DNA of 45,787 bases from Oscillospiraceae bacterium (GTDB lineage: Bacteria > Bacillota > Clostridia > Oscillospirales > UBA929), in the NCBI GenBank assembly GCA_031546715.1, contig JAVBKA010000047.1:1-45787 (forward strand), given 5' to 3'. Shown here one piece after another: positions 3,275 to 38,944 of the stretch; position 1 is the first letter of the stretch; each line of letters begins with the position of its first letter. The position numbers and the translations under genes are program-made. The notes beneath the pieces are model-generated. The model ran no database searches, was not told where the DNA came from, and saw nothing but the letters and a program-made list of their open reading frames with translations.

Positions 3275-4996
3275 ATGGAAATAAGAGAATTTACCTCACT
3301 TTTGAAAAAAATAAAACGTCAAAAAGATGGGTATATCGCCTGCTGTCCTGCCCATGATGATAAAACACCTTCACTTTCCATTAAATCTGCTGAAGACGGT
3401 AAAATTTTGCTTCATTGTTTTGCTGGTTGTGATACTTCATCTATTTTGTCAACAATGAAACTTACGGAATCCGATTTATTTCCACAAGAAAAACAAAAAA
3501 TTATTAAAAAAAATTCACCAACTCTAAAAAAAATATATACATATTGCGATATTAATAACAACCCCATTTTTGAAGTATGCCGCTACGAGCCCAAGGACTT
3601 TCGCATACGCCATTTTGGGAATGGGGGGTACATCTATGGGCTAGGGGACATCCAGCCCGTCTTGTACAACCTCCCAGAGGCATCACAAGCGGATACGGTG
3701 TATATATGCGAAGGTGAAAAGGACGCAGACTTACTAATTGCCCATGGACTTGCGGCAACGACTGCTCCAATGGGAGCGGGAAAATGGCGAGAGAGCTATA
3801 CTGAGCAGCTTTTGCATGTAAAAAAAGTTGTAATCATCCCGGACTGTGACAGCGCAGGGAAAAAACATGCGTATCAAATTATAAAAGCCATGAACAAAAT
3901 ACCCTGCGAAATTATTGACCTTAAATCAATTGACCCAAGCTTACCTGATAAATCTGATGTATCAGATTTATTAAAAAACCATACACTTGATGAACTACTA
4001 TCAGCTCCTCGAATAGCAGGTGAAAACTATTTAACTGATAATGTAAATGTTTCAGACCAAACAGCAACCATTATTCTTCAAAACTATGTTAAAAATAATT
4101 TTTGGGCAGATATTAATAAAAATAAAGATTCTTTTTTTATGCGTACTGGGTTTCCCTCGCTAGATAAAATTTTAGGTAACACATTGTCCCCAGGATTATA
4201 CATACTTGGCGCAGTATCATCTCTTGGTAAAAGTGCTTTTTGTTCTCAATTATGCGATACATGGGCATTACAACACCATCATGTATTGTTTTTTTCCTTA
4301 GAAATGTCTGTGCATGAAATGACAGCAAGAACACTCGCAAGACTATTATTTCAGCATAAACCAGAGCAAGAAACATCCATTACTACTGGAGATATTTTAC
4401 GAGGAAACGTAGATAAGCTAAAACTTACAGAAATAATTGAAAATCAATTATCAAATTTTGACAAGTATATTACATACGCAGAAGGTAATTTTAATATAGG
4501 AGTTTCTCAAGTGCGTAGCATTTGCGAGGAATACAAAGAAACATATAGCGTAAAACCAATTGTTTTTATTGATTATTTACAAGTTTTGACGCCTTCATCA
4601 GCACGGTTGACAGATAAGCAATCTGTAGATTATAATGTAGTCGAATTAAAACGAATTTCTAGAGATTTAGACATACCAATTATTGCGGTTTCTTCACTAA
4701 ACAGGCAAAATTATAACGAAGAATTGAACTTTTCAGCGTTCAAAGAGTCAGGGGCAATTGAGTACTCTGCAGATTTTGTAATGGGCCTGCAAGCATCAGG
4801 AGTTTCAGCAGCAGCGTCAAATATGGCGGTTGACGAAAAAAAACTAACAAGACAGATTGCACAGTGCGTTAAAACTGTAAAAATGCAGATACCTAGACAG
4901 TTGGAAGCAGTGGTGCTGAAGAATCGGCGGGGTGAGGCTATGGGCAAGTTTGAGCTTAGGTATTGGCCGGGGCAGAATTGGTTTGAGGAAGGGTAG
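3275..4996 (+). CDS. Fused primase-helicase (Zn-binding + TOPRIM + DnaB-like SF4 helicase)
   Basis: CPAHDD...LLHCFAGC zinc motif; VYICEGEKDA and IIPDCD TOPRIM motifs; GAVSSLGKS Walker A, FSLEM, IDYLQ, SSLNR, ESGAIEYSAD and KNRRG helicase motifs. Confidence 0.9.
   Translation: MEIREFTSLLKKIKRQKDGYIACCPAHDDKTPSLSIKSAEDGKILLHCFAGCDTSSILSTMKLTESDLFPQEKQKIIKKNSPTLKKIYTYCDINNNPIFEVCRYEPKDFRIRHFGNGGYIYGLGDIQPVLYNLPEASQADTVYICEGEKDADLLIAHGLAATTAPMGAGKWRESYTEQLLHVKKVVIIPDCDSAGKKHAYQIIKAMNKIPCEIIDLKSIDPSLPDKSDVSDLLKNHTLDELLSAPRIAGENYLTDNVNVSDQTATIILQNYVKNNFWADINKNKDSFFMRTGFPSLDKILGNTLSPGLYILGAVSSLGKSAFCSQLCDTWALQHHHVLFFSLEMSVHEMTARTLARLLFQHKPEQETSITTGDILRGNVDKLKLTEIIENQLSNFDKYITYAEGNFNIGVSQVRSICEEYKETYSVKPIVFIDYLQVLTPSSARLTDKQSVDYNVVELKRISRDLDIPIIAVSSLNRQNYNEELNFSAFKESGAIEYSADFVMGLQASGVSAAASNMAVDEKKLTRQIAQCVKTVKMQIPRQLEAVVLKNRRGEAMGKFELRYWPGQNWFEEG
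4607..4636 (+). promoter_or_regulatory. Consensus sigma-A promoter inside the helicase CDS, facing glycan operon A
   Basis: TTGACA (4607-4612), 18 nt, TATAAT (4631-4636). The palindrome ACAGAT-N5-ATCTGT overlaps the -35 box and spacer. Confidence 0.6.
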
Positions 4997-5207
4997 GTCG
5001 TGAGGATACGCGAATTAAGGGAACGATATAATTCGGTATAGTTAATCACATAAAATGGCATATAAATGCGTTTTTACTAGTTTCTTACAACTTTTATATT
5101 TAAACCACTTAACAAATTAACACCAAGTGCACAACTATCTTGTAATCAGCCGATACTACTGTGTTTTACACATAGTAATATATTTGTTTTAAGGATGTGA
5201 ATTCTGG

Positions 5208-6077
5208 GTGAGCAATGTAAAAAATAATTGTACGTTAGTTGTTTGCAGTTGCGATAGATATGAGGATTTATGGTTTCCCTTCTTTGAAATGTTTTCTATT
5301 AATTGGGCAAATTGTCCTTATCCTGTTGTTTTAAATACAGAGTCGAAGAGCTTTTCTCACCCTAAGGTATCAGTAAAGACTCAGCAGCTATATATTAACA
5401 CTGCAACACCTCCATGGGCTCGACGACTTATCGAGACGCTTAAAAAGATTGACACTGAATACGTTTTTTTGACACTGGATGATTTTTTTATTGTTGAGCC
5501 TGTAAATCAGAGTAAAATTGATGAATGCATAGGCTATATGGAAAAAGATCGTAACATCGGCGCATTTCAGTTTGAAAGCGCTGGATATTCGCCAGCCCGT
5601 ACGAGAAAAAGTGGTACGCCTGGCGATGATCATAATCCATCTAAAATAACCGGGTTTTTTATTAAAAATCATAAACGTCACTGGAAGTGTCAAGTTGTCC
5701 CTTCTATTTGGCGAAGAAAAACCTTAATCAAGTATTTACGACCACACGAAAGTGCATGGGGATGGGAAGCTTGGGGCAGCATGCGTGCGCGTAGATATAA
5801 AGAAGATATTTATGGCGAAATTAACACCGACGACATGGTTTATAAGTTTGCATTTGAGCCAAGGATGGGTGGTGCATCAGCTGTTGTAAATGGTAAGTGG
5901 GTAGTTAGTGCAGTTGATTCTGTATTTAAAACGTATGGAATAGAAGTTGATTATTTAGGACTTGGCACAACGACAATTGAGGCTTATTCAAGCGCCACTT
6001 TAAACGGAACTATATTAAAAATGCCAATTCCTATGATTATTAAAAAAACTATTGGAGTAATAAAATCCTTAATATAA
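5208..6077 (+). CDS. Putative GT-A-fold glycosyltransferase / glycan-cluster protein
   Basis: CDRYEDLW, YVFLTLDDFF (DXD-like) and PSIWRR motifs; first gene of the glycan cluster. Confidence 0.55.
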   Translation: MSNVKNNCTLVVCSCDRYEDLWFPFFEMFSINWANCPYPVVLNTESKSFSHPKVSVKTQQLYINTATPPWARRLIETLKKIDTEYVFLTLDDFFIVEPVNQSKIDECIGYMEKDRNIGAFQFESAGYSPARTRKSGTPGDDHNPSKITGFFIKNHKRHWKCQVVPSIWRRKTLIKYLRPHESAWGWEAWGSMRARRYKEDIYGEINTDDMVYKFAFEPRMGGASAVVNGKWVVSAVDSVFKTYGIEVDYLGLGTTTIEAYSSATLNGTILKMPIPMIIKKTIGVIKSLI

Positions 6078-6093
6078 AATTTTATTACTCCAG

Positions 6094-6136
6094 AGTGATA
6101 TTCCAGAACAACCAAGAGTTGTTCTGGAATATCACT
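6094..6136. repeat. Perfect 19-bp inverted repeat next to the RBS of the sialyltransferase-like gene
   Basis: AGTGATATTCCAGAACAAC-CAAGA-GTTGTTCTGGAATATCACT; no U-tract on the + strand. Confidence 0.8.
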
Positions 6137-6153
6137 TGTGGAGGTATGTTACA

Positions 6154-7287
6154 TTGGATTTTTATTTTGCAGGCGGTCCATATTATATTTTTCACCAAAT
6201 AAATCTAGCTTTACATGAAAACAAAGGTCACCCCGGCGACCTAATTATTGCCGACATCTTTGACGGGGCAGTAGAAATTGCCCAGAAGATTAGAACGGCA
6301 AAAATTTTTGAAAATGTATATCTTCTAGATAAACGCCAAAGCGTTTTAGTCAGCGGGATTCCAAATCGAACATTGCTACGTAAGGTCGTTGGAAGGTTAG
6401 GTCGGGAATTTTTAAATCTCCCGTTTATATTATCTCAGCATAAATATAAGGGCTTTCCTTTCTATGGGAAACAATATAGATATATTTACACAGGGCTTCA
6501 AGATGGCTTTTTAAATACTTTTTATGTAAAACAAATAAAAAATGGAGGGAAATTTTTTTTGGTCGATGATGGGCTAGGCGATAGAACTCGGCATATGTTT
6601 GATATGCCGTTATTTTATAAAATATTTTCCTATTTTGGCTCACAATCTTACTATCAATATATTTCAGGCGCATATTTTTATTCATTGGATTGCATTACTG
6701 GAAAAGCGTATTATCCTTTCTTAGAACAGATCAAGCCCCAGCCTTCGGACAAAGAGATTTTTGCTAAAATCTTTGATTACCATACTGAAGATGACCAAAT
6801 GTTGCGCTATCCATTTATATATTATACGCTTGGTCGAACAAAAGAAGATTATCTACAAAACGAAATTAGCCTAATACGAAATGCAATAGGAAAATCATTA
6901 CAAACCGGATTTGCTCTGAAAATGCACCCTTGGGACGGTCCTTCTATTAGCGGGTTTCCTCTATTAGAATCAACACTCCCTTTTGAAGTTGCTTGTCTTT
7001 TCCATGATATGGACAACAAAGTTTTAATTGCATCACACTCTGCGGTTTTGTTTAATTCTAAATTTATTTACGATAAAGAACCTTATCTTATATTTATGTG
7101 GAAACTTATTGGCATACCAACAAGTGAAATTATTTTTTCCGATTTAACTCTTGATCAAATAGTTCAACACATGCTAATTGACAGGTATCGTAATCCTAAA
7201 AAAATATTTATACCCGAATCTGTAGAAGAGCTTGTTGAAATACTGGATAAACTTTCAAAGATTTTACAAGGAGGAAGCGATGTCTAA
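6154..7287 (+). CDS. Putative CMP-nonulosonate (sialyl/legionaminyl) transferase
   Basis: Bacterial sialyltransferase motifs D/E-D/E-G (LVDDG) and HP (KMHP), plus PFEV and HSAV. Same cargo carries neuABC. GGAGG at 6140 supports TTG 6154. Confidence 0.65.
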   Translation: MDFYFAGGPYYIFHQINLALHENKGHPGDLIIADIFDGAVEIAQKIRTAKIFENVYLLDKRQSVLVSGIPNRTLLRKVVGRLGREFLNLPFILSQHKYKGFPFYGKQYRYIYTGLQDGFLNTFYVKQIKNGGKFFLVDDGLGDRTRHMFDMPLFYKIFSYFGSQSYYQYISGAYFYSLDCITGKAYYPFLEQIKPQPSDKEIFAKIFDYHTEDDQMLRYPFIYYTLGRTKEDYLQNEISLIRNAIGKSLQTGFALKMHPWDGPSISGFPLLESTLPFEVACLFHDMDNKVLIASHSAVLFNSKFIYDKEPYLIFMWKLIGIPTSEIIFSDLTLDQIVQHMLIDRYRNPKKIFIPESVEELVEILDKLSKILQGGSDV

Positions 7288-8257
7288 TATTGCGATAATT
7301 GGAGCAGGCGGACTAGGGTCGAGGCATTTACAGTCTGTTGCACAAATGAAAAGAGATATATGTATTCAAGTTGTGGATGTATCTCGCGATTCACTGGAAA
7401 AATCAGCTGTTCTATATAACCAAGTCACGCATGATTTTGTTAGCAAGGTCGAATTTTTCGAGGATATTGCATCGCTTAGCACTAATCTGGATGCGGTCAT
7501 TATTGCAACAACGTCAAAACCAAGACTACACATACTAGAGACCCTTTTGTCACAAAAGAAAGTTAAAAATATAGTGCTCGAGAAATTTTTGTTTCCAAGT
7601 ATTGCTGATTATGATGAGGCGGAAAAATTACTATCAGCACACGGGTGTAACGTGTGGGTCAATTGCCCACGCCGAGAATGGACATCATATGATAAAATCA
7701 GGCAACTATTCATTAACGAAAAACTACTGCAAGTCTCTGTTTGCGGGTCAAATTGGGGCCTTGGGTGTAATTCCATACATTTTTTAGATCTGATTTCGTT
7801 TCTTACTGGCAAAACTAATGATGTAACGTGGGATATTAGTCGTCTTGACTGTGGAACTACTGCTAGCAAGCGATCAGGGTATATTGAATTTTCAGGAACT
7901 CTGTTAGGGCAGTTTAATAATGGCAGTAATTTTACCTTAACTAGTCATTCAACGGGACAACTTCCTGTTGTAATCGAACTTTTAAGTGATCAAGCTAGAT
8001 GTATTGTTTTCGAATATTGTCAGAGAGTTTTTATTTCTACCGCATCAAATAACTGGACGATAGATGAATGTACATTTGATACGCCATACCAAAGTCAGAT
8101 TACAGGAAGAATTATTAATGATATTTTAGATACAGGGGCATGCAAGTTACCGACATATATTGAATCTTCGGCTATGCACAAGCCACTACTCACTGCATTT
8201 TTAAAGCACGTAAATATTAATAAAAATGACGAGGTGACGGAATGTTTAATAACTTAG
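7280..8257 (+). CDS. Gfo/Idh/MocA-family oxidoreductase
   Basis: IIGAGGLG Rossmann motif, LEKF, VNCPRR, NSIHFLD. GGAGG RBS supports ATG 7280. Confidence 0.85.
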   Translation: MSNIAIIGAGGLGSRHLQSVAQMKRDICIQVVDVSRDSLEKSAVLYNQVTHDFVSKVEFFEDIASLSTNLDAVIIATTSKPRLHILETLLSQKKVKNIVLEKFLFPSIADYDEAEKLLSAHGCNVWVNCPRREWTSYDKIRQLFINEKLLQVSVCGSNWGLGCNSIHFLDLISFLTGKTNDVTWDISRLDCGTTASKRSGYIEFSGTLLGQFNNGSNFTLTSHSTGQLPVVIELLSDQARCIVFEYCQRVFISTASNNWTIDECTFDTPYQSQITGRIINDILDTGACKLPTYIESSAMHKPLLTAFLKHVNINKNDEVTECLIT

Positions 8258-9198
8258 GAAGTATTTGGCTTGTTGGCTCAGGGCTAATGGCTGTTGATTA
8301 TGCAAAAGTGTTATCATCGCTTAATCCTAATTTTTCTGTTATTGGTCGAAGCGAACAGGGTGCTTCGAATTTTTATCAAAAAACTGGGATTGCAGCTACC
8401 CCTGGGGGGGTAGCTGCCTTTGCAAAGAACAACGAACTCCCTAATTACGCAATTGTATCTGTAAATGTTGAAGAGCTTTCGTCGGTAGCTCTTTTTTTAA
8501 TAAAAAATGGAGTTAAAAATATTTTATTAGAGAAGCCAGGCGGAACAAATATTGATGAAATTTCAAAAATAGCTATTTTTGCAAAAAAAATTGGAGCAAA
8601 CGTTCAAGTAGCATATAACCGCAGATTTTATAGTTCTACTCTGGAGGCCAACCGTATTATCGATGCTGACGGTGGTGTAACCTCTTTCAATTTCGAGTTT
8701 ACAGAATGGTCACATCAAATTGAAAAATTAAATTTCCCAAAAGCCAAAAGCGAAATATGGTTTTTAGCAAATTCCACACATGTAGTTGATCTTGCATTCT
8801 ATTTAGGAGGTAACCCTAAAAAAATGAGCTGTTACACGGCCGGTTCCCTTGACTGGTACAAGACTGCTAGTATTTTCTCGGGCTCAGGAATATCTGAAAA
8901 AGGCGCACTCTTTTCATATCAAGCAAACTGGAAAAGTCCCGGACGATGGAGCGTTGAGATGCTTACACTAAAGCATCGTTTAATATTCAAACCGATGGAG
9001 CAATTGCACATACAAAATATTGGATCAGTTTCCGTCGAGCAGGTTCAACTCGATGATTCATTGGACAAAAAATATAAGCCCGGTCTCTATCTACAAACCA
9101 AGGCATTTCTTGAAAACAATACTATGCCAAATATCATAAATATACATCAACACTTGCAAAACATGGCGTTTTACGAGCAAATTGAGCATGGTAATTAA
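8242..9198 (+). CDS. Gfo/Idh/MocA-family oxidoreductase
   Basis: LVGSGLMA, LLEKPG, AYNRRF, NSTHVVD. Confidence 0.85.
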   Translation: MFNNLGSIWLVGSGLMAVDYAKVLSSLNPNFSVIGRSEQGASNFYQKTGIAATPGGVAAFAKNNELPNYAIVSVNVEELSSVALFLIKNGVKNILLEKPGGTNIDEISKIAIFAKKIGANVQVAYNRRFYSSTLEANRIIDADGGVTSFNFEFTEWSHQIEKLNFPKAKSEIWFLANSTHVVDLAFYLGGNPKKMSCYTAGSLDWYKTASIFSGSGISEKGALFSYQANWKSPGRWSVEMLTLKHRLIFKPMEQLHIQNIGSVSVEQVQLDDSLDKKYKPGLYLQTKAFLENNTMPNIINIHQHLQNMAFYEQIEHGN

Positions 9199-9218: not shown

Positions 9219-9911
9219 TTAATCTATACAAGGAACTAGCAGCATTTCTGCTAGTTTAAAATCAGTGCCACTGTCAATATCAACAGAACGCTCTTGGGGC
9301 ATTATGTAGGCATAACACTTTTCTGAAAAGAGATTGAATGTTTTATCCAGAAAGTTTGTGTCCACTATATACAATGCTCCATTTATTCTATAATATTTTT
9401 CAAGCTGTTGTCTGCCCTTATTTATTAATTCCTTTGGAATAAAGTTATCCAGGGAAAGACTATCGTCAAGCTTATTGCACCAAAGCGGCGAATGTTCCAT
9501 TTCCGACACTGATACCACAGCATTAGCATTCTTCTCTTCATAAAGAGCATATCCATCTTGAATATCTTTAGCTATTCTTAACGGAGATGTGGGTTGAAGC
9601 ACTGAAACCGTGTCAAACTTATGCCCCATGGTTTTAAATTCGGCTAAAGAACTTATTACAACATCCCAAGTGGAAGCCGTGTCTGTAGATAATTCTGGTT
9701 TGCGTAGAAACAGCACACTAGCTCCATAGTCTTTTGCAATTTCGGCATAATTTTCCGAATCTGTAGAAACGTGAATAACATCAAAAATACCGGATTTCTG
9801 CGCACAAATAATTGAATGCGCAATAAGTGGCAAACCGGCTAAGAGTTTTATGTTTTTATCTTTTAGTCCCTTTGAACCGCTACGAGCAGGAATTATGGCA
9901 AGATTCTTCAT
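9219..9911 (-). CDS. neuA: CMP-nonulosonic acid synthetase (acylneuraminate cytidylyltransferase, LegF-like)
   Basis: IIPARSGSKGLKDKN, LQPTSPLR, INGALY, SVDID. Confidence 0.95.
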   Translation of the reverse strand: MKNLAIIPARSGSKGLKDKNIKLLAGLPLIAHSIICAQKSGIFDVIHVSTDSENYAEIAKDYGASVLFLRKPELSTDTASTWDVVISSLAEFKTMGHKFDTVSVLQPTSPLRIAKDIQDGYALYEEKNANAVVSVSEMEHSPLWCNKLDDSLSLDNFIPKELINKGRQQLEKYYRINGALYIVDTNFLDKTFNLFSEKCYAYIMPQERSVDIDSGTDFKLAEMLLVPCID

Positions 9912-11083
9912 AAAGTCTCCTCAAACTTGATATCATAAAATTGTTTTTTAAGTTCTATTTTACTATTAAACAAAAACTCCTTAATCGTACAAACAATGCG
10001 TTCGGATGTATTCCCTCGTTGATACGGACTGACTGTATTTATTGATTTTTTAATAAATTCATCGGACAGCGCCGTATTCATTGCCGAAACAATATTGTTA
10101 CAATAAGGAATGCAATTTATAATACTGTTCGCCTGTAGTCTTCCTTTTTGGCGATCTCCAATATTAACTGTCGGAATCCCCAAGATTGGGGCTTCAATAA
10201 TGCCACTTGACGAATTACCAATAACCATGCATGAATGTTTCACAAGGCTTAAATATCTTGTTAGTCCTAATGACTGAAAGGCAACGCAGTTATCTCGAGT
10301 AGCTACAAACTCATCAATTTTTGTGTTAATAATCCTGCTGTTGGTATCTGAATTGCTTTTTGTAAAAACAAATTTTAATTGTGGAAACAAATCCAGCGCC
10401 GTCAATAGTTCTGTTATTTGTTCTTCTGCAGAATTATTTTCCATCGTGACAGGATGAAATGTGACGCTTGCATAATGTTCACCTAAGTCAAAATGGAGCG
10501 ATGTTTCGAGGTCAATTTTGTTTAACAGGTTTGCATTTTCGATAGCTTCTACGCCAACATCACCAAAGTTAAAAACTCTGTCTGGAGACTCACCCAGTTG
10601 AATAACTCTTTTCCTATATTGCTCGCAACCTACAAAATGAAGTTGGCTCATTTTAGTTATACTATGGCGAAAGCACTCATCAATTGCGCCCTCGGTAGTT
10701 TCTCCACCCGATATATGAGCAATTGGTATCCGCAAATTTAGTGCACAACAACAAATTGGAATTAACTCGTAACGGTCACCTAATACTAGTATCATATCTG
10801 GTGCATGACGATATAACACGTCTGCAAAGCTTATAAAGGCAACGCCCATTGTTTTTGAAACAGACGAGGGGTTGTCTCCATTCATAAGTATATCTACTTT
10901 TTCAGCAATTGGAATATTATCATTTACAATTTCGTCCACAGTAAAACCAAAGTCATGAGATAAATGAGTTCCTGTCGCAATAAGGCAGAGTTCGAGCTCT
11001 GCATGAGAATGGATTTTTTGTATTACCCCTTTTAATAAACCATACTCCGCTCTTGTAGCGGTCACAACGCATATTTTCATCAA
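9908..11083 (-). CDS. neuC: Hydrolysing NDP-sugar 2-epimerase (NeuC/LegG)
   Basis: TATRAEYG, LGDRYE, HISGGE, GNSSSG, GDRQKGR. Confidence 0.95.
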   Translation of the reverse strand: MMKICVVTATRAEYGLLKGVIQKIHSHAELELCLIATGTHLSHDFGFTVDEIVNDNIPIAEKVDILMNGDNPSSVSKTMGVAFISFADVLYRHAPDMILVLGDRYELIPICCCALNLRIPIAHISGGETTEGAIDECFRHSITKMSQLHFVGCEQYRKRVIQLGESPDRVFNFGDVGVEAIENANLLNKIDLETSLHFDLGEHYASVTFHPVTMENNSAEEQITELLTALDLFPQLKFVFTKSNSDTNSRIINTKIDEFVATRDNCVAFQSLGLTRYLSLVKHSCMVIGNSSSGIIEAPILGIPTVNIGDRQKGRLQANSIINCIPYCNNIVSAMNTALSDEFIKKSINTVSPYQRGNTSERIVCTIKEFLFNSKIELKKQFYDIKFEETL

Positions 11084-12075: not shown

Positions 12076-12077
12076 AG

Positions 12078-30282: not shown

Positions 30283-30335
30283 TTAAACCAGTCCTCTCAA
30301 TATAATACATTGCGCTCAACTGCGCATAGCAAAAC

Positions 30336-31112: not shown

Positions 31113-31152
31113 GTCATCAGCTACTTTCATTAGAACATTTAGATACAAACCA

Positions 31153-32088
31153 CTAGCAATCACTTTTTGCTTGTGTATTTGCATTAATGGTTGCTTTTAA
31201 CCCATCTATGAGTTGGACTTTGTTAATATGACCTAATTCTCTAGTCATCCGTGTCGTATCTGCAAGAATAACTGGGTCATTAGACGGTTGATAAAGTGTG
31301 TTAGCTGTCTCACAATCAAAGAAATTTACATTATTCAACGTCAATAAATGCTCACAATTTAAAATCTTTGATATTTCTGAAAAAATAGTTCCAACTAATA
31401 ACGGTTTCCCACTTGCTATATTGACCGGTCCAACAACATTTGAATCTAGCAATGACGCAAATGCTTGCGCACAATCATCTATATGCATATAATCTCTTAC
31501 TGCATTTGACATATTGCAAACAACGTTTTCTTTATTTAAAAAGCTCCTAATCGCATTTGGTATCGCCTTTTGCTCTTTATCTCCCGGACCATATAAAAAG
31601 AAAATTCTACCACACGCATAAGATAGTCCGTATGCTTTACTAAAAGCTGACGCTATTTCAAAAAAACTTCGTTTCGTCGAAGCATATGGAGAGTCCAAAT
31701 GCACAGGGGTCTGTTCATTTAAAACACCAAAACTACTGTCGTATTCCGAGCAGGTGCCAGACGACACAAACCGTTCCCCTCCGTTTTTTAAAAACGCTTT
31801 GAGCATATGGCAACCAGACGCAAGCCAGTCCAAATTTTCTTGAGATGAATATGCAATTCTATGTCCTGTTACCCAAGCATAATGTAGTAAGTGCGTTGGC
31901 TTAATTTTAGCAAAGAGATCCTCGGTTTCACTTGCATTCAGAAGGTCGGCATTGTGATGGGTTACTTTTGAGAGATTCAGCGTTGAGCCTTTAGAAACAG
32001 TATGAACTTCATACCCAGCTTGAATTAAAAATGAAATACTAGCTTTACCTAAAAAACCTCCAGCACCAGTTAATAGTACTCTTTTCAC
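31153..32088 (-). CDS. NAD-dependent epimerase / NDP-sugar ketoreductase
   Basis: TGAGGFLG, GTCSEY, YASTK, RDYMHI. Confidence 0.85.
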   Translation of the reverse strand: MKRVLLTGAGGFLGKASISFLIQAGYEVHTVSKGSTLNLSKVTHHNADLLNASETEDLFAKIKPTHLLHYAWVTGHRIAYSSQENLDWLASGCHMLKAFLKNGGERFVSSGTCSEYDSSFGVLNEQTPVHLDSPYASTKRSFFEIASAFSKAYGLSYACGRIFFLYGPGDKEQKAIPNAIRSFLNKENVVCNMSNAVRDYMHIDDCAQAFASLLDSNVVGPVNIASGKPLLVGTIFSEISKILNCEHLLTLNNVNFFDCETANTLYQPSNDPVILADTTRMTRELGHINKVQLIDGLKATINANTQAKSDC

Positions 32089-32118
32089 TGCTGCATCTTT
32101 CCTTTCACATTGCCTAAT

Positions 32119-33150
32119 TTACACACGATAGCAGTCAATCATTCGTCTTATAGCAGTCCTTATTGTTGTAGAAGGTTCCCAACCTGCATTTTTTAATCTA
32201 TTAGCGTCAATGGTCGCATCCTGAACACCTGTCATAGATTTATGTGACGGGTTAATTATGTGCGTTATTCTCGCATCAGAATTCATATTATGAGTCAAGA
32301 AAAGTTCAGCAATATTTTGAATCGTCAGGTTTTCACTAGAAACATTGTACACATTGCCATGCTGTCCTCGAATAAGCATTGTAAACAGAGCTATCGTAAG
32401 ATCATTTGTTGAAATATAACTTCTTACCGGCGTTCCATCGCTGTAGACGACAATGTTTTTCTGTTCTAAAACATTTGATAAAAAATCACTAATATGGTGG
32501 TTTCCTCCAATAGTTATACCCGGTCCAATTACTGTTCCAATTCGAGCAACAAAAATTTTTGCCTTATTTGAACTAAAATATGCCTGACATAAAGCCTCTC
32601 CAATTCTTTTTGATTCAGTATAACATGTTCCACTTTTAAAACAATCAGAAGAGCCAAACGAATTTTCATCAGTGCCAGGTCTATTTTCACCATACACTGC
32701 ATAGCTACTTAAATACACCATGCTTGCATTTTTTTCAGATGCGAAGGAAAGAACGTTATCTGTGCCAAGATAGCTAGTGCGCAATGTGCCAATTGGATTA
32801 CTGTGTGTAGTTGCAGGCGTGGCATTGGCGGCTGAATGAAATATAAAATCAACATTGCTTTTATAAATAATTGGTTCACATACATCCTGAACTATAATTT
32901 CAAAATCATCTCTGTTAATAACATCAAAAAAGCGTTCCCTTGCACGGCATATGTCACGAACCATCCCTACGATATGCACATTCGTGTTGTAGATATCATT
33001 TAACGAAAGCAGCGTATATACTAAATATGTTGAAATAAACCCATTTGCTCCTGTTATAAGCACAGTCTTGTCTTGTAATGTTTCCCAGGGCAAAGATGCG
33101 TTAATTATTTCATGAGTGTCTTCCCATACAACTCTGTGATAATTATCCAT
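32119..33150 (-). CDS. NAD-dependent epimerase/dehydratase (extended SDR)
   Basis: TGANGFI, YTESKR, SDG...RSY. GGGGAG RBS supports ATG 33150. Confidence 0.85.
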   Translation of the reverse strand: MDNYHRVVWEDTHEIINASLPWETLQDKTVLITGANGFISTYLVYTLLSLNDIYNTNVHIVGMVRDICRARERFFDVINRDDFEIIVQDVCEPIIYKSNVDFIFHSAANATPATTHSNPIGTLRTSYLGTDNVLSFASEKNASMVYLSSYAVYGENRPGTDENSFGSSDCFKSGTCYTESKRIGEALCQAYFSSNKAKIFVARIGTVIGPGITIGGNHHISDFLSNVLEQKNIVVYSDGTPVRSYISTNDLTIALFTMLIRGQHGNVYNVSSENLTIQNIAELFLTHNMNSDARITHIINPSHKSMTGVQDATIDANRLKNAGWEPSTTIRTAIRRMIDCYRV

Positions 33151-33151
33151 C

Positions 33152-34483
33152 TTACTCCCCTTTAACAAAATCCCTAATACACTTCACAACATGTCTCAGT
33201 CTATCCTCATCCAACCCTGGATACACGCCAAACCAAAATGAGTTGTTCATAATGGCATCAGTATTCTTCATATCGCCGACAACTCTGTACTCGACGTCAT
33301 CATCTACAAAACATGGGTGCTTCAACAAGTTTCCTGCAAACAACATTCTAGTCTGAATGTTGTTTTTTTCAAGATGCTGCACTATTTCATTTCTGGTAAA
33401 AGGTGCATTATCTTTGACAGTAAGAATAAAGCCAAACCAGCATGGCTCAGAATGTTCAGTTGGTTTAGGCAAAATAAAGTATTCACTTAAATTACTCAAA
33501 GAATCACGCAAGTACTTCCAATTTTTTCGTCGAGCTTTAATAAAAGAAGGTAATTTCTCAAGCTGAGCGCAGCCGACAGCCGCTTGCATATCCGTTATTT
33601 TTAGATTATACCCAAGATGAGAATATACGAATTTATGGTCATATCCCTGCGGTAGTTGTCCGTATTGTCCATCATATCTATGCCCGCAAAAATTATCAAC
33701 ACCAGAAGGACACTGACAGTCTCTTCCCCAATCTCTAAGCGACAGTGCGATGCGATGTAGTAGACTATTATTTGTATACACCGCTCCTCCCTCACCCATT
33801 GTCATCTGATGCGGCGGATAAAAGCTCGATGTACCAATATCTCCCACCGTACCTGTATAACATAGATTTCCGTTTATTTCAACTTGTGAGCCAAGCGCAT
33901 CGCAGTTGTCTTCGATTAGCCAAAGGTCATGCTTTTTACAAAAATCTGCTACGGCAGAAAGCTCAAAAGGATTCCCAAGTGTATGTGCAACCATAACAGC
34001 TTTTGTTTTTTCCGTAAGAGCTTCCTCCAAGCCAGAAACATCAATATTATATGAGGGTATGGTAACGTCTACAAATACTGGAACAGCACCAAACTGAACT
34101 ATTGGAGAAATTGTAGTAGGGAAGGCACATGCAACGGTAATGACCTCGTCACCTCGGGAAATTCTACGTTTTCCAAGAAGATGAGAGGTCAGCGCCATAA
34201 ACGCCAATAAATTCGCAGAGGAGCCTGACGTCGTTGCCAAGCAATGCTTAACACCTAGAAACCGTGCAAAGTCCCGTTCAAATTTTTCTGCATACCTTCC
34301 AGAGGTAAGCCAAAAATCTAGCGACGAATCCACTAAATTAGTTATTTCATTTTCATCAAATACTCTGCCAGCATATGCTATGCGCTCACCAGCCACAAAG
34401 GTCTTTTTGCTGCCAAATTCTTCTTTGTAATACTCTTTTGTTAGTTCAATTATTCTATCCCTTAATCCCTTGCTCATGTTCAT
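33152..34483 (-). CDS. rfbH: CDP-4-keto-6-deoxyglucose 3-dehydrase (E1, DdhC)
   Basis: SGSSANL, EDNCDALG, SFYPPH (His in place of the PLP Lys), RDWGRDCQC...NFC Fe-S cysteines, YDHK. Confidence 0.95.
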   Translation of the reverse strand: MNMSKGLRDRIIELTKEYYKEEFGSKKTFVAGERIAYAGRVFDENEITNLVDSSLDFWLTSGRYAEKFERDFARFLGVKHCLATTSGSSANLLAFMALTSHLLGKRRISRGDEVITVACAFPTTISPIVQFGAVPVFVDVTIPSYNIDVSGLEEALTEKTKAVMVAHTLGNPFELSAVADFCKKHDLWLIEDNCDALGSQVEINGNLCYTGTVGDIGTSSFYPPHQMTMGEGGAVYTNNSLLHRIALSLRDWGRDCQCPSGVDNFCGHRYDGQYGQLPQGYDHKFVYSHLGYNLKITDMQAAVGCAQLEKLPSFIKARRKNWKYLRDSLSNLSEYFILPKPTEHSEPCWFGFILTVKDNAPFTRNEIVQHLEKNNIQTRMLFAGNLLKHPCFVDDDVEYRVVGDMKNTDAIMNNSFWFGVYPGLDEDRLRHVVKCIRDFVKGE

Positions 34484-35531
34484 CCACCTTACTCATGTGT
34501 GCTTCTGTTAATGTTCTAAAAGTTTCTTGAAGGGGTTGTCCTAAGTTTTTGCTCTTATAAAAGCATACAATCTGCTCTAATGTTTGTTCAAGCGACCACA
34601 ATGGGCTAAAGTTTAATTCCCTCTTTGCCTTGTCAATGTTTAAACGTAAAATATCTTTTTCTGGAATTGTTGTTCCTTTTGATGTAATTTCATATTTGGC
34701 AGTACATCCCCAAAGTCTGCACAAGCTTTTTGTGATCTCCTCAACGGTCATAGTAATTCCAGGGTCTGGGCCTATGTTCCATGCTCCAGAATAGTTAATG
34801 CCGTCTTCATATAGGCACTGTGCTAGTTTCAAGTACCCAGTCAAACAATCAAGAATGTTCTGCCATGGTCTGACAAACAATGGATTTCTAATCTCAACGC
34901 ATTCTTCATTACAAATGGCCTTAATAATCGAAGGAATAAGCCGACTAGCAACAGGATCACCGCCGCCTAAAACGTTTGATGCTCGTGCTGTGGCAAGGCC
35001 GCATTTATGCAAAAACACGTTACGATAGGTTTCAACCACTAATTCTTGACATGTTTTACTACTTGAATACGGGTCTATTGCTCCAAATATAGCAGATGCT
35101 TCCTTAAAGCCGCCTTGAGGACAATCACCAGAATAAACTTTATCACTAGTGACAACTAACGTCGCCTTTACACTACTTATTGCACGCACAGATTCTAGTA
35201 TGTTGACTAAGCCAATTACATTTACATTATAAGTTTTTAACGGCTCAAGTATTGATTCTGGAACAAAAGTGGGCGTTGCCAAGAAAAAGAGTATCTCTGG
35301 TTGTGCCTGTACAACGGCTTGTTCTAACGCTGCAACATCAAGTACATCCCCTCGAATGTCAACAAGTCCATTAAATTGTAAATCATCAAAGCACGAGCCT
35401 TCCACTGGGTCTAGGGAATAGCCCGTTACTTCGGCGCCGAGCATACAAAGCCAATAGGTAAGCCATGTGCCTTTAAACCCAGTATGTCCAACTATTAAAA
35501 CTTTTTTACCACGCCAAAAATCTGCTAACAC
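34455..35531 (-). CDS. rfbG: CDP-glucose 4,6-dehydratase (DdhB)
   Basis: FWRGKKV...GHTGFKG.W, TSDKVY, DPYSSSK, RPWQ. Confidence 0.92.
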   Translation of the reverse strand: MLADFWRGKKVLIVGHTGFKGTWLTYWLCMLGAEVTGYSLDPVEGSCFDDLQFNGLVDIRGDVLDVAALEQAVVQAQPEILFFLATPTFVPESILEPLKTYNVNVIGLVNILESVRAISSVKATLVVTSDKVYSGDCPQGGFKEASAIFGAIDPYSSSKTCQELVVETYRNVFLHKCGLATARASNVLGGGDPVASRLIPSIIKAICNEECVEIRNPLFVRPWQNILDCLTGYLKLAQCLYEDGINYSGAWNIGPDPGITMTVEEITKSLCRLWGCTAKYEITSKGTTIPEKDILRLNIDKAKRELNFSPLWSLEQTLEQIVCFYKSKNLGQPLQETFRTLTEAHMSKVDEHEQGIKG

Positions 35532-35643
35532 TAGTAAGACCTCTTATTTCTTCGGTATTTTTTACAATTTTACTATTTAATACATCTTTGCGCATAGCCA
35601 GTGCAAACTCAGCGTGCGTCATTAGCGTTCTCCTTTATGATAC

Positions 35644-36561
35644 TTATTTCTTTTTCAGAAGTACAGATTTTACCGTTTTCACTACGCCATTTACATCAAT
35701 GCCATAGTTTTTTTGTAGACTTTCACGTGACGCCGCAGTGTCAGCAAAAACATCTGGAATGCCTAACACGTGGATATCCCCATTGCCAGACGCGACAGCA
35801 ACTCTTGTAACGGCATCACAAAATCCACCCATCGTCGTATGCTCATCCAAAATAAATATTGCCTTCTTTTCAAGAACTATCTTGCTAATATCTAACGGTT
35901 TTACCGTTGGGCTATGAACTAAGCCTACGGAAAATCCTTCTTCTTTTAATATTTCAATAGCCTGCCTTGCAACAATAGCCATAATTCCTGTCGTGAATAT
36001 AATTGCGTCTGAGCCTAATGATGAGAAAGACGCTTGTCCTACTAAAAAATCTTGCAGTTTATTTTCGTGAAATTTTGGCTCACCGTTTCTACCTATTGCC
36101 AGATATGAAGGTCCATCTAATTCAAGTGCAGCAACGGTGACTGCGCTAACCTCATGAGCATCACATGGACAAAAAACTGTCATGTTTGGAATAGCAGAAG
36201 CTATGGCTAAATCTTCGATAGCGTGGTGGGTTGGTCCATGACCTCCGTAAGTCAACCCCGTGCCTGCGCCAACTAAAACTACAGGGAGCTTCTGAATCCC
36301 AATCAGCACTTTTACCTGTTCAAAAGCTCTTCCTGGTAAAAAACTAGCCATTGACAAAGCAACAGGTCGTAGTCCTCGCAGTGCAAGTCCAGCAGAAACT
36401 CCGACCAAATTTTGCTCTGCAATACCTACATTATAGTATCTATCAGGGAACTCGTCTTGAAATGGCTCAATTAAGGAAAAGCCGACTTCAGCTGTACACA
36501 AAACTATACGTGAATCAACTCTTGCACTTTCAATTATTGTTTTAATAAAAGAGGCTCTCAT
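35644..36561 (-). CDS. Transketolase, C-terminal (pyrimidine-binding) subunit
   Basis: NVGIAEQN, GPTHHAIED, TVKPLD. Confidence 0.9.
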   Translation of the reverse strand: MRASFIKTIIESARVDSRIVLCTAEVGFSLIEPFQDEFPDRYYNVGIAEQNLVGVSAGLALRGLRPVALSMASFLPGRAFEQVKVLIGIQKLPVVLVGAGTGLTYGGHGPTHHAIEDLAIASAIPNMTVFCPCDAHEVSAVTVAALELDGPSYLAIGRNGEPKFHENKLQDFLVGQASFSSLGSDAIIFTTGIMAIVARQAIEILKEEGFSVGLVHSPTVKPLDISKIVLEKKAIFILDEHTTMGGFCDAVTRVAVASGNGDIHVLGIPDVFADTAASRESLQKNYGIDVNGVVKTVKSVLLKKK

Positions 36562-37361
36562 ATCCCTAGCTCCTCTAGACCTAAATTAAATTGCTCAGCA
36601 TCTGGCCACTTATAATGCCAGACGACCTTATTCTCAACAAAAGACACGCCTTTGCCTTTTATGGTATTGGCAATAATCATTGTTGGTTTTCCAGACGGTT
36701 CATTAGCTTCTTTAAGAACTTTTTCAATAGCCTCATAATTATGACCATTAATATTTGCAGTATTCCACCCAAAAGCTCTAAATTTTTCAGACAAGTCTCC
36801 CATATTTAATACTTTTAAATCATCAGCGCAGGATTGCAACATATTCCTGTCAACAATAGCTATAAGGCTATCTAGATTATGTCTAGGCGCAAACATTGCA
36901 GCTTCCCAAATAACGCCTTCATTGCATTCACCATCACCAAGCAAGACATACGTTTTTGCTGTGCTATTAATAATTCTGTTAGCCAAAGCCATGCCACAGC
37001 CAACTGACAAACCATTGCCAAGTGAGCCTGTCGAGCAATCTATACCAGGAACTCCTCCTCTTGAAGGATGAACACCCATAGCATATTTTTCATTACAAAA
37101 ATCCTTAAGTTTTTCCTTAGAGAAAAAGCCCCTTTCTGCGAGCACTGCATATAATGCAGATGCTGCATGGCCTTTACTAAGAATAAAGCTATCTCTATCC
37201 CTTTCGTTGAATGAGGAAGGGCTTACATTCATAATGCCGTTATAAAGTACCGTTAATATATCCACACATGAAAAAGAAGACCCTACAAAAGAGGCTTTTT
37301 TTTCTGTTACCATACCCCAAATAGATTTTCTTGCATTGTTTGCTATTTTAGCGTAATTCAC
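36558..37361 (-). CDS. Transketolase, N-terminal (TPP-binding) subunit
   Basis: LSKGHA, STGSLG, GDGECNEG..WE, DRN, TIKGKG. Confidence 0.9.
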   Translation of the reverse strand: MNYAKIANNARKSIWGMVTEKKASFVGSSFSCVDILTVLYNGIMNVSPSSFNERDRDSFILSKGHAASALYAVLAERGFFSKEKLKDFCNEKYAMGVHPSRGGVPGIDCSTGSLGNGLSVGCGMALANRIINSTAKTYVLLGDGECNEGVIWEAAMFAPRHNLDSLIAIVDRNMLQSCADDLKVLNMGDLSEKFRAFGWNTANINGHNYEAIEKVLKEANEPSGKPTMIIANTIKGKGVSFVENKVVWHYKWPDAEQFNLGLEELGI

Positions 37362-37525
37362 TTATACACATCCAATCATAACCCCAAAGTTTTACATAGT
37401 TGCAAAACTGATAAGCCCCTATAAATCCCGCACTTCAAGGTTTTCGTTATTAAAAATGAAAAATATATGCCGCCAGTTTCACAATGCACGCTGCTTTATT
37501 TGTTTGATTGCTTTATATGCCAACA

Positions 37526-38536
37526 TTACTTCACAATAGGTTCACGCAATTTCAAGCCTCTAAAAACAACTCGCATAATCTTTTGCATCCATGGAAAATA
37601 ACATAGTATATATCTGATAAACAAGTTTAGGTTAAAGGGTAGTACTTTGCGCATTTCTTTATAATACTTTTTTGCATCAGCCTGACGCGCATATCCAGCG
37701 GCGGTTGTGAAATTAGACTTTAAATAAGTTTCTTCAATAATTTGAAGATTTTTTGCAGTATCTACACCTAATACTTGACAATATTTTTTTTGGAATTGTC
37801 GTAGCCCTTCAGAGTACTCAATCGCTTTTTCATAAGAACCTATAATAGGTGAGGCGTGATAAGCACTATCAGGCCTCAAAACATACTTGCATAATACGTC
37901 ATCAACAAACCCAACGCCCTTTTTAGTTGCAGGAAAAAAAGTCATTTGGTAATCAAGTGCAATCGGAGGGGCTATAACAATCAATTGCCCATTAGGCACT
38001 GTTGACAAAAAATCCTCTCTTCTATGCATAAAGCAAACAGGAGGGGCAAAGTAAAAAGAACTTGACAATATTAAGTCGAGTATATTTCCTTCTCTTTTAC
38101 TAATAGTCGGCACTACTTTTTCAGTTATATCACTATCTAACTTATTAATGTGGACAGTGCTGCAGTTGCAATGCACATAACAAAAGTCTTGATTTTCATC
38201 CAATTTTTTAGCTAAGACTTTAACATATTCTGGCTCTATTAGGTCATCGCAATCGTAAAAGAAGAAGTAACTTCCTGTAAACAGCTTAAGACCTCTATTA
38301 TAACCGCCGCCATTTGAATTAATCGGCAATTTATCGTATATTATGCGAATGCCCCGTTCTAGTAGCTTTGATTGCCATTGATAAAACTTGGATTCTGTTT
38401 CATCAGTAGACGCATGATTAACAAAAACAAGCTCTATGTTATCATACGTTTGGGATAAAATGCATTTAAAATATGTGTCAAGATATGGTGCCCCATTATA
38501 ACAGGTTGTAATTATGCTTACTAGCGCTTTTGCCAT
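37526..38536 (-). CDS. Glycosyltransferase family 2
   Basis: LVSIITTCYN, NHASTD, DCDD. Confidence 0.87.
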   Translation of the reverse strand: MAKALVSIITTCYNGAPYLDTYFKCILSQTYDNIELVFVNHASTDETESKFYQWQSKLLERGIRIIYDKLPINSNGGGYNRGLKLFTGSYFFFYDCDDLIEPEYVKVLAKKLDENQDFCYVHCNCSTVHINKLDSDITEKVVPTISKREGNILDLILSSSFYFAPPVCFMHRREDFLSTVPNGQLIVIAPPIALDYQMTFFPATKKGVGFVDDVLCKYVLRPDSAYHASPIIGSYEKAIEYSEGLRQFQKKYCQVLGVDTAKNLQIIEETYLKSNFTTAAGYARQADAKKYYKEMRKVLPFNLNLFIRYILCYFPWMQKIMRVVFRGLKLREPIVK

Positions 38537-38541
38537 TCCCT

Positions 38542-38944
38542 CTACCCTTCCTCAAACCAATTCTGCCCCGGCCGATACCTAAGCTCAAGCTTGCCCATAG
38601 CCTCGCCTCGTCGATTCTTCAGCACCACTGCTTCCAACTGTCTAGGCACCTGCATTTTTACCGTCTTAACACACTGTGCAATGTATCTTGTTAGCATTTT
38701 TTCTCAAAAGTCATATTTGCAAACTCCTGACAATTGCAGTCTCATGATAAACCCTGCCGAGTACTCAATTGCGCCTGATTTTTTTAAATGCTGAAAAATT
38801 AAGTTCTTCGTTGTAATTTTGCCCGTTTAGTGACGAAACTGCAATAATTGGTATGCCTAAATCTCTAAAAATCCACTTTAATCCGACTACATTATAATCC
38901 ACAGATTGCTTATCTGTCAACCGTGCTGATGAAGGCATTAAAAA
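38542..38944 (-). pseudogene. Degenerate inverted copy of the primase-helicase 3' end (homologous to ~4584-4996)
   Basis: Encodes PSSARLTDKQSVDYNVV...EELNFSAFK and QCVKTVKMQ...GQNWFEEG-stop with frameshifts and a deletion. Its TAG lies 5 nt before the GT2 ATG. Confidence 0.92.
38891..38920 (-). promoter_or_regulatory. Consensus sigma-A promoter in the helicase pseudo-copy, facing glycan operon D
   Basis: Minus strand TTGACA-GATAAGCAATCTGTGGAT-TATAAT (18-nt spacer). Confidence 0.65.

Follow-up and report, generated by a model that had tools for sequence, protein, structure and literature searches.

Organization of the plasmid

The window analyzed here, a stretch of 45,787 nt, is the whole of contig JAVBKA010000047.1 in a MAG of 248 contigs (GCA_031546715.1), and is a mobilizable plasmid of ~45 kb from a Clostridia-type Firmicute, with replication of the primase-helicase type. 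Its features are as follows.

3052..3194, no strand: 22-nt iterons (3.1 copies, 3052-3119) and an AT-rich 10-nt repeat (3170-3194), by Tandem Repeats Finder
3209..3236, plus: promoter-like site of the helicase gene itself, GTGACA-N16-TATAAT (11/12) with TG before the -10, 39 nt 5' of the ATG
3275..4996, plus: intact primase-helicase gene (573 aa) with CHC2 zinc ribbon, Toprim, and DnaB_C (Pfam, NCBIfam)
4584..4996, plus: repeat arm 1, the final 137 codons and stop of the helicase gene (repeat search, BLAST, alignment)
4607..4636, plus: perfect TTGACA-N18-TATAAT (12/12) in the helicase frame, codons L445-T446 ... Y453-N454
4997..5207, plus: spacer from the helicase stop to operon A (motif scan)
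5208..9198, plus: cargo block A, 4 ORFs, two GFO/IDH/MocA oxidoreductases and two without a family (Pfam, NCBIfam)
9219..16757, minus: cargo block B, 8 ORFs, NeuB, UDP-GlcNAc 2-epimerase, cytidylyltransferase, aminotransferase, FemAB-like, GNAT, nucleotidyltransferase, and dehydratase (Pfam)
17205..29195, plus: cargo block C, 11 ORFs, deacetylase, GT2, GT4, aminotransferase, methyltransferase, UDP-sugar dehydrogenase, PglK/MsbA-like ABC transporter, and radical SAM/SPASM (Pfam, NCBIfam)
29224..38536, minus: cargo block D, 9 ORFs, GT2, split transketolase, epimerases/dehydratases, aminotransferase, nucleotidyltransferase, and GT2 (Pfam)
38534..38560, minus: junction, helicase-derived GAG GAA GGG TAG (a Shine-Dalgarno-like purine run), 5 nt, and the GT2 ATG (sequence inspection)
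38542..38944, minus: repeat arm 2, a decayed, frameshifted copy of the helicase tail (repeat search, BLAST, tblastn, alignment)
38891..38920, minus: perfect TTGACA-N18-TATAAT (12/12) in the remnant, 355 nt 5' of the operon D start, the proposed operon D promoter
38940..38972, minus: terminator-like hairpin 38972-38946 (-14.1 kcal/mol) and TTTTT at 38944-38940, abutting the start of homology
39249..40352, minus: Mob_Pre (MobV) relaxase gene, part of the backbone, flanking the remnant on its outer side (Pfam, blastn)

The assignment of the plasmid to its host rests on binning, and its composition departs from that of the genome: GC content was 38.2% vs 43.8%, and the tetranucleotide correlation with the genome was 0.896 vs a median of 0.976. 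Spo0A was present in the host genome, and SusD was not found there. The contig ends within a repeat array, and its final 120 nt matched 294-413 at only 93%, which hints at strain variation.

The primase-helicase is the replication protein of the plasmid, and the repeats just 5' of its gene are likely the replication origin. Its relatives found by tblastn were primase-helicase proteins of small Firmicute plasmids. Those in PLSDB (Streptococcus thermophilus, Lactobacillus delbrueckii, and Anaerotruncus colihominis) shared the zinc ribbon/Toprim and DnaB_C domains, with 29-41% identity to this helicase, and likewise had iterons upstream of the gene. Unlike the present plasmid, they were mostly 6-15 kb and without large cargo; their DNA similarity to it was one 157-nt patch at most, and a duplicated tail is on record in none. 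The best protein relative in all collections searched showed 66% identity; searches of PLSDB, GTDB genomes, JGI metagenomes, and IMG/VR yielded no close relative, and two draws of 400 genomes each from the order contained no DNA relative.

Glycan genes fill the 33,545 nt between the inner ends of the arms, block B representing a pathway of the nonulosonic-acid type. Surface-glycan synthesis takes up three quarters of the length of this plasmid, which is mobilizable and derives from an uncultured Firmicute of the gut type, and this load, the nonulosonic-acid pathway included, bears on cell-surface diversity moving between strains. Among ORFs of at least 80 aa, no integrase, recombinase, invertase, or transposase family was matched (Pfam, NCBIfam).

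Decay of the inverted helicase-tail copy

The two arms aligned in three gapless inverted blocks: 4584-4744/38783-38943 (161 nt, 89%), 4739-4805/38721-38787 (67 nt, 79%), and 4835-4996/38542-38703 (162 nt, 91%). By BLAST, identity over the whole arms was 85% (E = 1e-131), and a third arm copy was absent from the 248-contig genome. The copy represents 413 of the 1722 nt of the helicase gene; over these 413 nt the arms differed by 52 events in a pairwise alignment, the longest identical runs being 36, 35, and 32 nt. The initial annotation, which had proposed an inverted repeat of ~400 bp of the helicase tail bracketing a 33.5-kb cargo, was therefore correct on this point, as it was on the frameshifts and deletion in the middle of the copy: the frame is shifted because of three indels, a 1-nt insertion after 4741 and deletions of 11 nt (4806-4816) and 1 nt (4834).

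When read by tblastn, the copy fell into two frames with one internal TGA, and invariant or near-invariant helicase residues were altered (R460W, S462F, R477G, E491K, and D500G). Positions conserved at 90% or more made up 5 of the 19 changed codons and 30 of the 112 unchanged codons (Mann-Whitney, P = 0.86), and the 131 codons compared contained 24.5 synonymous and 24.5 non-synonymous changes. This substitution pattern rejected neutral decay of both copies (P = 0.002) and two functional genes at an omega of 0.15 (P = 0.0003). A model with one decaying and one constrained lineage fitted (P = 0.18-0.27), suggesting that the copy turned into a pseudogene at about the time when the two sequences split. 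Judging from these comparisons, the copy is a decayed pseudogene, a remnant of the helicase 3' end that no longer codes for protein.

Promoter motif and junction with operon D

Both arms contained a perfect TTGACA-N18-TATAAT (12/12), at 4607-4636 on the plus strand and 38920-38891 on the minus strand, and the copy was truncated 23 nt upstream of the -35; both hexamer pairs, and homology starting ~20 bp before the motif, had been described previously. The 18-nt spacer lies within the 16-18 nt of sigma-A/sigma-70 promoters. From base composition, ~0.08 perfect consensus sites are expected by chance per 45.8-kb window; the motif in the remnant is a copy of that in the helicase gene, and the two sites count as a single event. 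In the host genome, 57 perfect TTGACA-N16-18-TATAAT sites were found vs 2.5 expected from composition, and in sixty controls with permuted hexamers the count averaged 2.05 and never exceeded 7, i.e., the perfect consensus was ~28-fold over-represented. Forty-six of these sites were located outside ORFs of at least 100 aa (about 11 inside), and 13 had an 18-nt spacer. Because of this ~28-fold, mostly intergenic excess, a perfect consensus should be a good predictor of a real promoter in the host, which appears to use the sigma-A/sigma-70 consensus, the plasmid being linked to it by binning only. Backbone genes had 11/12 sites at sensible distances (3209-3236, 42330-42358, 42286-42257, and 40998-40970). 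The weak points of the motif are its 18-nt spacer, vs the commoner 17, the absence of an extended -10 TG, and the long leaders downstream (355 and 572 nt). Promoter activity of the motif in the remnant is plausible.

Block D starts at 38536 with a GT2 gene, the ATG of which (38536-38534) is separated from the TAG of the copy (38544-38542) by 5 nt, in agreement with the spacing originally given. Shine-Dalgarno motifs were present ahead of many plasmid genes. The terminator-like hairpin reported directly 5' of the copy was also found, the final four T's of its T-run already lying within the helicase homology; its stability was ordinary in comparison with shuffled sequences (z = -1.3; 22 of 200 folded equally well). 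Two terminator-like sites were located between mob and the remnant, and none in the 355-nt leader of operon D. On the minus strand of 38890-38536, the sole other promoter-like site matched at 9/12, and no comparable operon D promoter was detected. No strong consensus of the sigma-A type lies 5' of operon D other than that in the remnant, which is most likely the promoter of this operon because the hairpin closes off mob and there is no other good promoter. On the intact side, the spacer 4997-5207 contained no terminator-like site, and its best promoter-like site matched at just 9/12.

Conservation of the motif between the arms was less distinctive than had been proposed. The 53 bp of 4591-4643 contained a single difference (at 4627), as counted in the initial annotation, but with 52 events over 413 nt such a stretch is unremarkable: 23% of random placements contained a window of 53 bp with no more than one event (scan statistic, P = 0.23). 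The twelve hexamer bases would remain unchanged by chance with P ~0.2 (arithmetic from the same 52 events). In a post hoc test, for which the boundaries were set by us and the hypothesis was drawn from the same sequence, the predicted promoter (-35 to +1) and the last 20 nt (57 nt together) contained 1 event vs 7.2 expected (hypergeometric, P = 0.003), with P = 0.011 when the hexamers were left out and 0.01-0.04 under narrower definitions. Neither the promoter (P = 0.14) nor the Shine-Dalgarno/stop region (P = 0.06) was significant when taken singly. Selective retention of the remnant is weakly indicated by these values.

Among distant homologues, 0 of 109 and 0 of 51 loci exceeded 6/12 and 7/12, respectively, in the same register. 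Leu-Thr plus Tyr-Asn was kept in two of the 19 aligned protein relatives, and the other 17 cannot encode both hexamers in register; P0003 (61% identity) and P0020 are the closest relatives with Leu-Thr and Tyr-Asn, and could encode the motif. These comparisons indicate that the motif is lineage-specific. Given the amino acids and the codon usage of the plasmid, the four hexamer codons had P = 0.034. In the five relatives inspected 3' of the helicase gene, the next gene was on the opposite strand in two, a plus-strand ORF followed 13 nt on in one, and plus-strand ORFs lay past a gap in another.

Origin and role of the remnant

We consider it somewhat better than an even chance that the remnant was left by an old recombination, decayed, and now serves as the promoter and leader of operon D, for which role it was kept. 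The recombination, between two copies of this plasmid or with a very close sibling, would have joined 413 bp from the helicase 3' end, inverted, to the first gene of operon D; possible routes include an inversion whose breakpoints were staggered, or fusion head to head and a subsequent deletion. The piece would then have decayed as a pseudogene, keeping a sigma-A consensus that happened to lie in the helicase frame, while its purine-rich final codons may act as the ribosome-binding site of the GT2 gene. The motif in the intact gene may add transcription into operon A, besides read-through from the helicase promoter. The initial annotation had suggested that a coding fragment was kept as a promoter/RBS cassette; the non-coding state of the remnant, its being the site of the only strong consensus 5' of operon D, its Shine-Dalgarno region, and the terminator-like hairpin between it and mob conform to this, whereas local conservation (P = 0.23) does not. 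Operon D has probably co-opted the remnant as its promoter and RBS. A working operon D promoter in this position would be a clean case of a rearrangement turning part of an essential gene into regulatory DNA, and would show that promoters hidden in coding sequence become usable after loss of the frame. As one instance without relatives, it is a lead rather than a new principle.

The remnant may instead be a neutral leftover of rearrangement, the motif being an accident of the Leu-Thr...Tyr-Asn codons and operon D being transcribed from weak internal promoters or by read-through. The scan statistic, the chance survival of the hexamers, the lack of the motif in 160 of 160 aligned distant homologues, and the ~11 of 57 perfect host sites inside ORFs are all consistent with this explanation; according to one report (PMC10135026), truncated rep genes next to accessory genes are a usual mark of fusion in Firmicute plasmids. 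We regard it as unlikely, since RNA polymerase should bind a consensus over-represented 28-fold wherever the site lies, operon D has no better candidate promoter and terminator-like hairpins upstream, and the remnant is near full length in spite of ~12% divergence, with its predicted functional ends best kept. The initial annotation had gone further, regarding the helicase tail as a general built-in expression platform. A selected, reusable promoter and RBS at the helicase 3' end, expressing any downstream cargo and duplicated to drive both ends inward, would account for the identical motif pointing into the cargo from both ends, the lack of a strong operon A promoter within 4997-5207, the choice of hexamer codons (P = 0.034), and the capacity of P0003 and P0020 to encode the motif. 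This idea rests on one plasmid because the motif is absent from relatives (0 of 160 distant loci) and downstream layouts vary among the five relatives; furthermore, the two sites are one event, both hexamers are unencodable in register in 17 of the 19 aligned relatives, and operon A, on the intact side, already receives transcription from the helicase promoter. The general platform was not supported in this form, and we judge it improbable. A broader version, in which a dual-use helicase 3' end with a strong promoter in its codons, duplicated inverted and selected through ~12% divergence, drives both outer operons inward, while occasional crossovers in the indel-free 3' block flip the 33.5-kb locus with replication unharmed, likewise appears improbable.

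Recombination between the arms as such, which would flip the 33.5-kb cargo and, by a crossover in the 3' block, spare the helicase and swap the coupled operon, is suggested by their inverted orientation, the identical runs of up to 36 nt, and the indel-free 162-nt 3' block (91%). This role is very improbable: there is no recombinase or invertase among the scanned ORFs of at least 80 aa, recombination between 400-bp arms that are 85% identical should be rare, the helicase would be lost in a crossover within the 5' block, the long divergence of the arms, which were not homogenised, speaks against frequent exchange, and a single orientation is on record. The 248-contig MAG and the ends in a repeat array with a 93% match might raise the suspicion that two related metagenome plasmids were joined into one chimeric contig. 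We give this almost no credence, because a diverged (85%), truncated, and frameshifted copy altered at invariant residues points to a real pseudogene, not a mis-joined functional gene; hairpin-type artefacts yield identical arms, and a shared word able to mislead an assembler was absent at both junctions.

Insertion-sequence ends carry outward-reading promoters that activate neighbouring genes, likewise a piece of a mobile element giving an adjacent gene its promoter; here, the piece is a helicase gene tail, and no transposase or IS ends were found. A composite transposon was dismissed, as the arms consist of helicase sequence and the ORFs of at least 80 aa matched no transposase family, and so was a site-specific invertible segment (fimS, shufflon, or the capsule promoter switches of Bacteroides), the arms being diverged 413-nt gene fragments and no invertase being found among those ORFs.

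According to a report on class 1 integrons (PMC2791841), the Pc promoter lies inside the intI1 coding sequence, and is also a promoter in the reading frame of a backbone gene for neighbouring promoterless cargo, its bases doubling as codons. In contrast to Pc, the promoter candidate here is co-directional with its host gene, at the 3' end, with a second instance in a dead fragment. An expression platform of the integron type was discarded: no integrase or recombinase was matched (Pfam, ORFs of at least 80 aa), and the cargo consists of four multi-gene operons, not cassettes.

The remnant may plausibly be classed with a known type of plasmid scar. In the report on staphylococcal multiresistance plasmids cited above (PMC10135026), delta rep genes beside accessory genes are read as traces of past fusion, likewise a partial replication gene directly before accessory genes on a mobilizable Firmicute plasmid with mob/pre. 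The fragment here also shows partial homology to an intact backbone gene with its frame destroyed, and relaxed selection, as seen in conservation-blind changes and the substitution pattern. It differs in being inverted and of the plasmid's own helicase type (85% to the resident gene), in edging a 33.5-kb glycan region, and in its proposed promoter role.

An inverted, decayed copy of the helicase tail

The 3' end of the primase-helicase gene (arm 1; 4584-4996, plus strand) recurred inverted at 38542-38944 (arm 2, the remnant; minus strand) with 85% identity (E 1e-131), the gapless blocks between the arms being 91%, 89%, and 79% identical. No third copy was found in the 248-contig genome. The reading frame of the copy was destroyed: 52 difference events separated it from arm 1, including three indels in the copy (+1, -11, and -1). 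Both arms contained a perfect TTGACA-N18-TATAAT motif (4607-4636 and 38920-38891), each facing the cargo. At the inner edge, homology stopped at the stop codon, and in the copy only 5 nt separated this TAG from the start codon (ATG) of the GT2 gene opening block D (the last of the four glycan gene blocks), in contrast to the 211-nt spacer after the intact helicase stop. At the outer edge, homology began within the T-run of a hairpin (38972-38946; -14.1 kcal/mol), which was ordinary when compared with shuffled sequences; the truncation point was 23 nt upstream of the -35. This architecture was as described in the initial annotation. No Rfam family matched anywhere in the window at gathering thresholds, or at E <=1 in 38500-39300. 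The structured 300-nt non-coding stretch from mob (the relaxase gene) to the remnant also held an inverted repeat of 13-14 nt (GAAAA(A)TTTTGGAAC / GTTCCAAAATTTTC; arms ~24 nt apart) at 39002-39054.

The remnant, as observed, is almost certainly real and decayed, and the copy is a long-dead pseudogene. Amino-acid differences from the intact gene affected 19 of 131 comparable codons. Strongly conserved positions (>=90% among 19 relatives) accounted for 5 of the 19 changed and 30 of the 112 unchanged codons (Mann-Whitney P 0.86), and R460W, S462F, R477G, E491K, and D500G replaced invariant or near-invariant helicase residues; therefore, the replacements arose in the copy, without constraint. Synonymous and non-synonymous changes were equal (24.5 each), while the observed transition bias (35:14) makes 29% of random changes synonymous. 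Decay of both copies was rejected with this bias allowed for (P 0.002), as were two working genes diverging at omega 0.15 (P 0.0003). A model with one lineage decaying and the other constrained fitted (P 0.18-0.27), indicating that the copy lost function about when the two sequences parted. The raw dN/dS of 0.24 is no proof of a foreign or diverged functional donor allele: with transition bias allowed for, simple duplication with one decaying lineage was no longer rejected. We take the donor to be the plasmid in the window or a very close sibling; the arrangement is old (~12% divergence between the arms).

To reach this arrangement by any route, one junction must fall precisely on the stop codon of the helicase gene and another mid-gene. 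The cargo may have been inverted with staggered breaks, duplicating the helicase tail, or two near-identical plasmids with different cargo may have fused head to head, one backbone then being deleted; the data do not distinguish between these routes. The gap of 5 nt from stop to ATG suggests that block D formerly stood behind a complete helicase gene in one operon. Truncated rep genes directly before accessory genes are described as fusion scars in staphylococcal plasmids, also with mob/pre (PMC10135026). The remnant is a further case of this kind, with a better argument than usual for promoter use.

The remnant as a proposed promoter and ribosome-binding site

The reading of the remnant as a retained promoter/RBS cassette was supported in part: it supplied the only strong consensus and the only Shine-Dalgarno candidate ahead of block D, but the signature of selection was weak. 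Perfect TTGACA-N16-18-TATAAT occurred at 57 distinct sites in the source MAG, versus about 2-2.5 expected (2.5 from composition); in 60 controls with permuted hexamers, the number of sites averaged 2.05 and never exceeded 7. Most of these perfect sites (46 of 57) lay outside ORFs of at least 100 aa, and the spacer was 17 nt in 37 and 18 nt in 13 of them. The plasmid backbone genes had promoter-like sites scoring 11/12 at plausible distances; one of these sites lay 39 nt ahead of the helicase ATG. A perfect consensus in this genome is a strong predictor of a promoter. The consensus promoter set was unusually clean for an uncultured Clostridia-type genome.

Ahead of block D, other promoter-like sites scored 9/12 at most, and its 355-nt leader contained no terminator-like site; two such sites lay in the stretch from mob to the remnant. 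The sole Shine-Dalgarno candidate for the GT2 gene was the purine run GAGGAAGGG within the final helicase codons. From these sequence features, we lean toward the remnant serving block D as its working promoter and RBS. On the intact side, there was no terminator-like site between the helicase and block A, and the best promoter-like site in this spacer scored only 9/12, so that both the helicase promoter and the internal motif could drive transcription into block A.

The local conservation emphasized in the initial annotation (53 bp with one mismatch) was not special: 23% of random event placements gave a stretch at least as well conserved. The twelve hexamer bases would remain unchanged by chance with P ~0.2 (arithmetic from 52 events/413 nt), and the P value for the four hexamer codons from codon usage was 0.034. 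In post hoc tests on the elements that the motif and start codon predict, the span from -35 to +1 together with the final 20 nt carried 1 event in 57 nt versus 7.2 expected (P 0.003); P was 0.011 without the hexamers and 0.01-0.04 with narrower definitions. Taken singly, the promoter gave P 0.14 and the SD/stop region P 0.06. Overall, the selection signature on the remnant appears weak.

The logic proposed for the remnant promoter resembles that of the integron Pc promoter, which is embedded in the intI1 reading frame and expresses cassettes that lack promoters of their own (PMC2791841). Unlike integrons, the plasmid in the window has no cassette structure and no integrase among the Pfam-scanned ORFs of at least 80 aa.

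Relatives of the helicase tail

It is very unlikely that, more broadly, the tail of the helicase gene serves as a selected platform for expressing cargo in general. The same-register motif score was at most 6/12 in 109 distant homologue loci (rows gapped in the ten codons dropped) and at most 7/12 in 51 further loci (32 gapped rows dropped), which indicated that the motif is specific to the lineage of the window's plasmid. Moreover, gene order downstream of the helicase varied among the five distant homologues inspected, with no common architecture:

Anaerotruncus plasmid: convergent gene
G058:C14: opposite-strand ORF
Streptococcus plasmid p29887: plus-strand ORF 13 nt after the helicase
G046:C25: plus-strand ORFs after a gap
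G021:C57: same-strand ORFs past an opposite-strand ORF

The homologue on G046:C25 (L166; 8772 nt) was 50% identical over the tail segment, and nearly all long ORFs there lay on one strand. Since this homologue leaves the contig end and resumes at the start, the contig is probably a complete small circular plasmid.

None of the searches recovered a relative close enough for a comparison of synonymous sites. Among 5.8 billion proteins, the nearest (66%, 61%, and 52% identity) occurred in Logan assemblies alone. In the protein alignment (20 of 120 listed proteins used, query included), Leu-Thr was present in 3 of 19 aligned relatives, Tyr-Asn in 3, and both in 2. In PLSDB, blastn matched the helicase region over a single 157-nt patch and the remnant region nowhere. 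Tail peptide patterns retrieved only distant DnaB-type matches (27-51% identity, short segments) from GTDB contigs, JGI metagenomes, and IMG/VR; the best identity was 41% both in IMG/VR scanned with the family alignment and in 60 relatives' genomes. In two DNA searches, each of 400 genomes drawn from the order, the backbone query gave one 32-nt match, in the repeat array, and the second query matched only a 64-nt hairpin element and the transketolase genes.

The plasmid, its host and its glycan cargo

The window is all of contig C85 of a MAG with 248 contigs (2.8 Mb, 91.6% complete) and, by its Pfam matches, carries parts of a plasmid:

1-346, 1207-1313, 45565-45787: repeat units of 89 nt containing a GCAGCGTCACGCTGC palindrome, with termini GTGAACTTTT/AAAAGTTCAC, flanking the parB-like gene
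392: ATG, the real start of the ParB-like gene, with GGAGGG ahead of it
568-aa protein with a C-terminal HTH (Pfam)
3052-3194: 22-nt iterons (3.1 copies) and an AT-rich 10-nt repeat, directly upstream of the helicase promoter
3275-4996: primase-helicase, 573 aa, with zinc ribbon, Toprim, and DnaB_C (Pfam)
39249-40352, minus strand: Mob_Pre/MobV relaxase (Pfam)
44542-45564: ParA (Pfam)
ParE/antitoxin pair in the plasmid backbone (Pfam)

The iterons and AT-rich repeat are likely the replication origin. The 89-nt array looks centromere-like, and its 3.9 copies at the contig start and one at the end (with a partial copy after parB) indicated that the contig is probably a circle broken within it. 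The final 120 nt match the region around the parB start with no more than 93% identity, so the circle is not formally closed; a strain variant or second parB copy at the contig end is possible. Two palindromes upstream of mob, each matching its own reverse complement (40498-40558, 61 nt, 92%; 40706-40757, 52 nt, 100%), are oriT candidates.

The genome contained Spo0A and lacked SusD, which excluded a Bacteroidota host, for which the sigma-70 consensus and SD would be irrelevant. Together with the helicase's plasmid relatives (primase-helicase proteins of small Firmicute plasmids, 29-41% identity) and the likeness of the relaxase to staphylococcal and Bacillus MobV genes, this indicated a Firmicute-type plasmid. 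Its assignment to the MAG was by binning only; GC was 38.2% versus 43.8% for the genome, and the tetranucleotide correlation was 0.896 versus a median of 0.976 for 26 other large contigs.

The 32 ORFs within 4997-38541 formed four blocks (A+, B-, C+, D-), nearly all having sugar-nucleotide, glycosyltransferase, or export functions; glycan biosynthesis (5208-38536) occupied ~73% of the plasmid. The families were NeuB, 2-epimerase, cytidylyltransferase, several DegT aminotransferases and epimerases, four GT2/GT4, and a PglK/MsbA-like ABC transporter, adjoined by a radical SAM/SPASM enzyme. Pfam detected no priming phosphoglycosyltransferase, Wzx, or Wzy family in ORFs of at least 80 aa, so the pathway may need chromosomal genes or may glycosylate a protein.

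A ~75-nt long hairpin was located just past the mob stop codon (39167-39240, minus strand). It had no Rfam match, recurred at 85-88% identity over 57-66 nt in four other genomes of the order (G002, G299, G029, and G028), and showed compensatory changes in 6 of 27 predicted pairs. None of the four had a Mob_Pre gene on the hairpin contig, and only G002 had any, on other contigs. By sequence, this hairpin may be a new structured RNA or single-strand DNA element.
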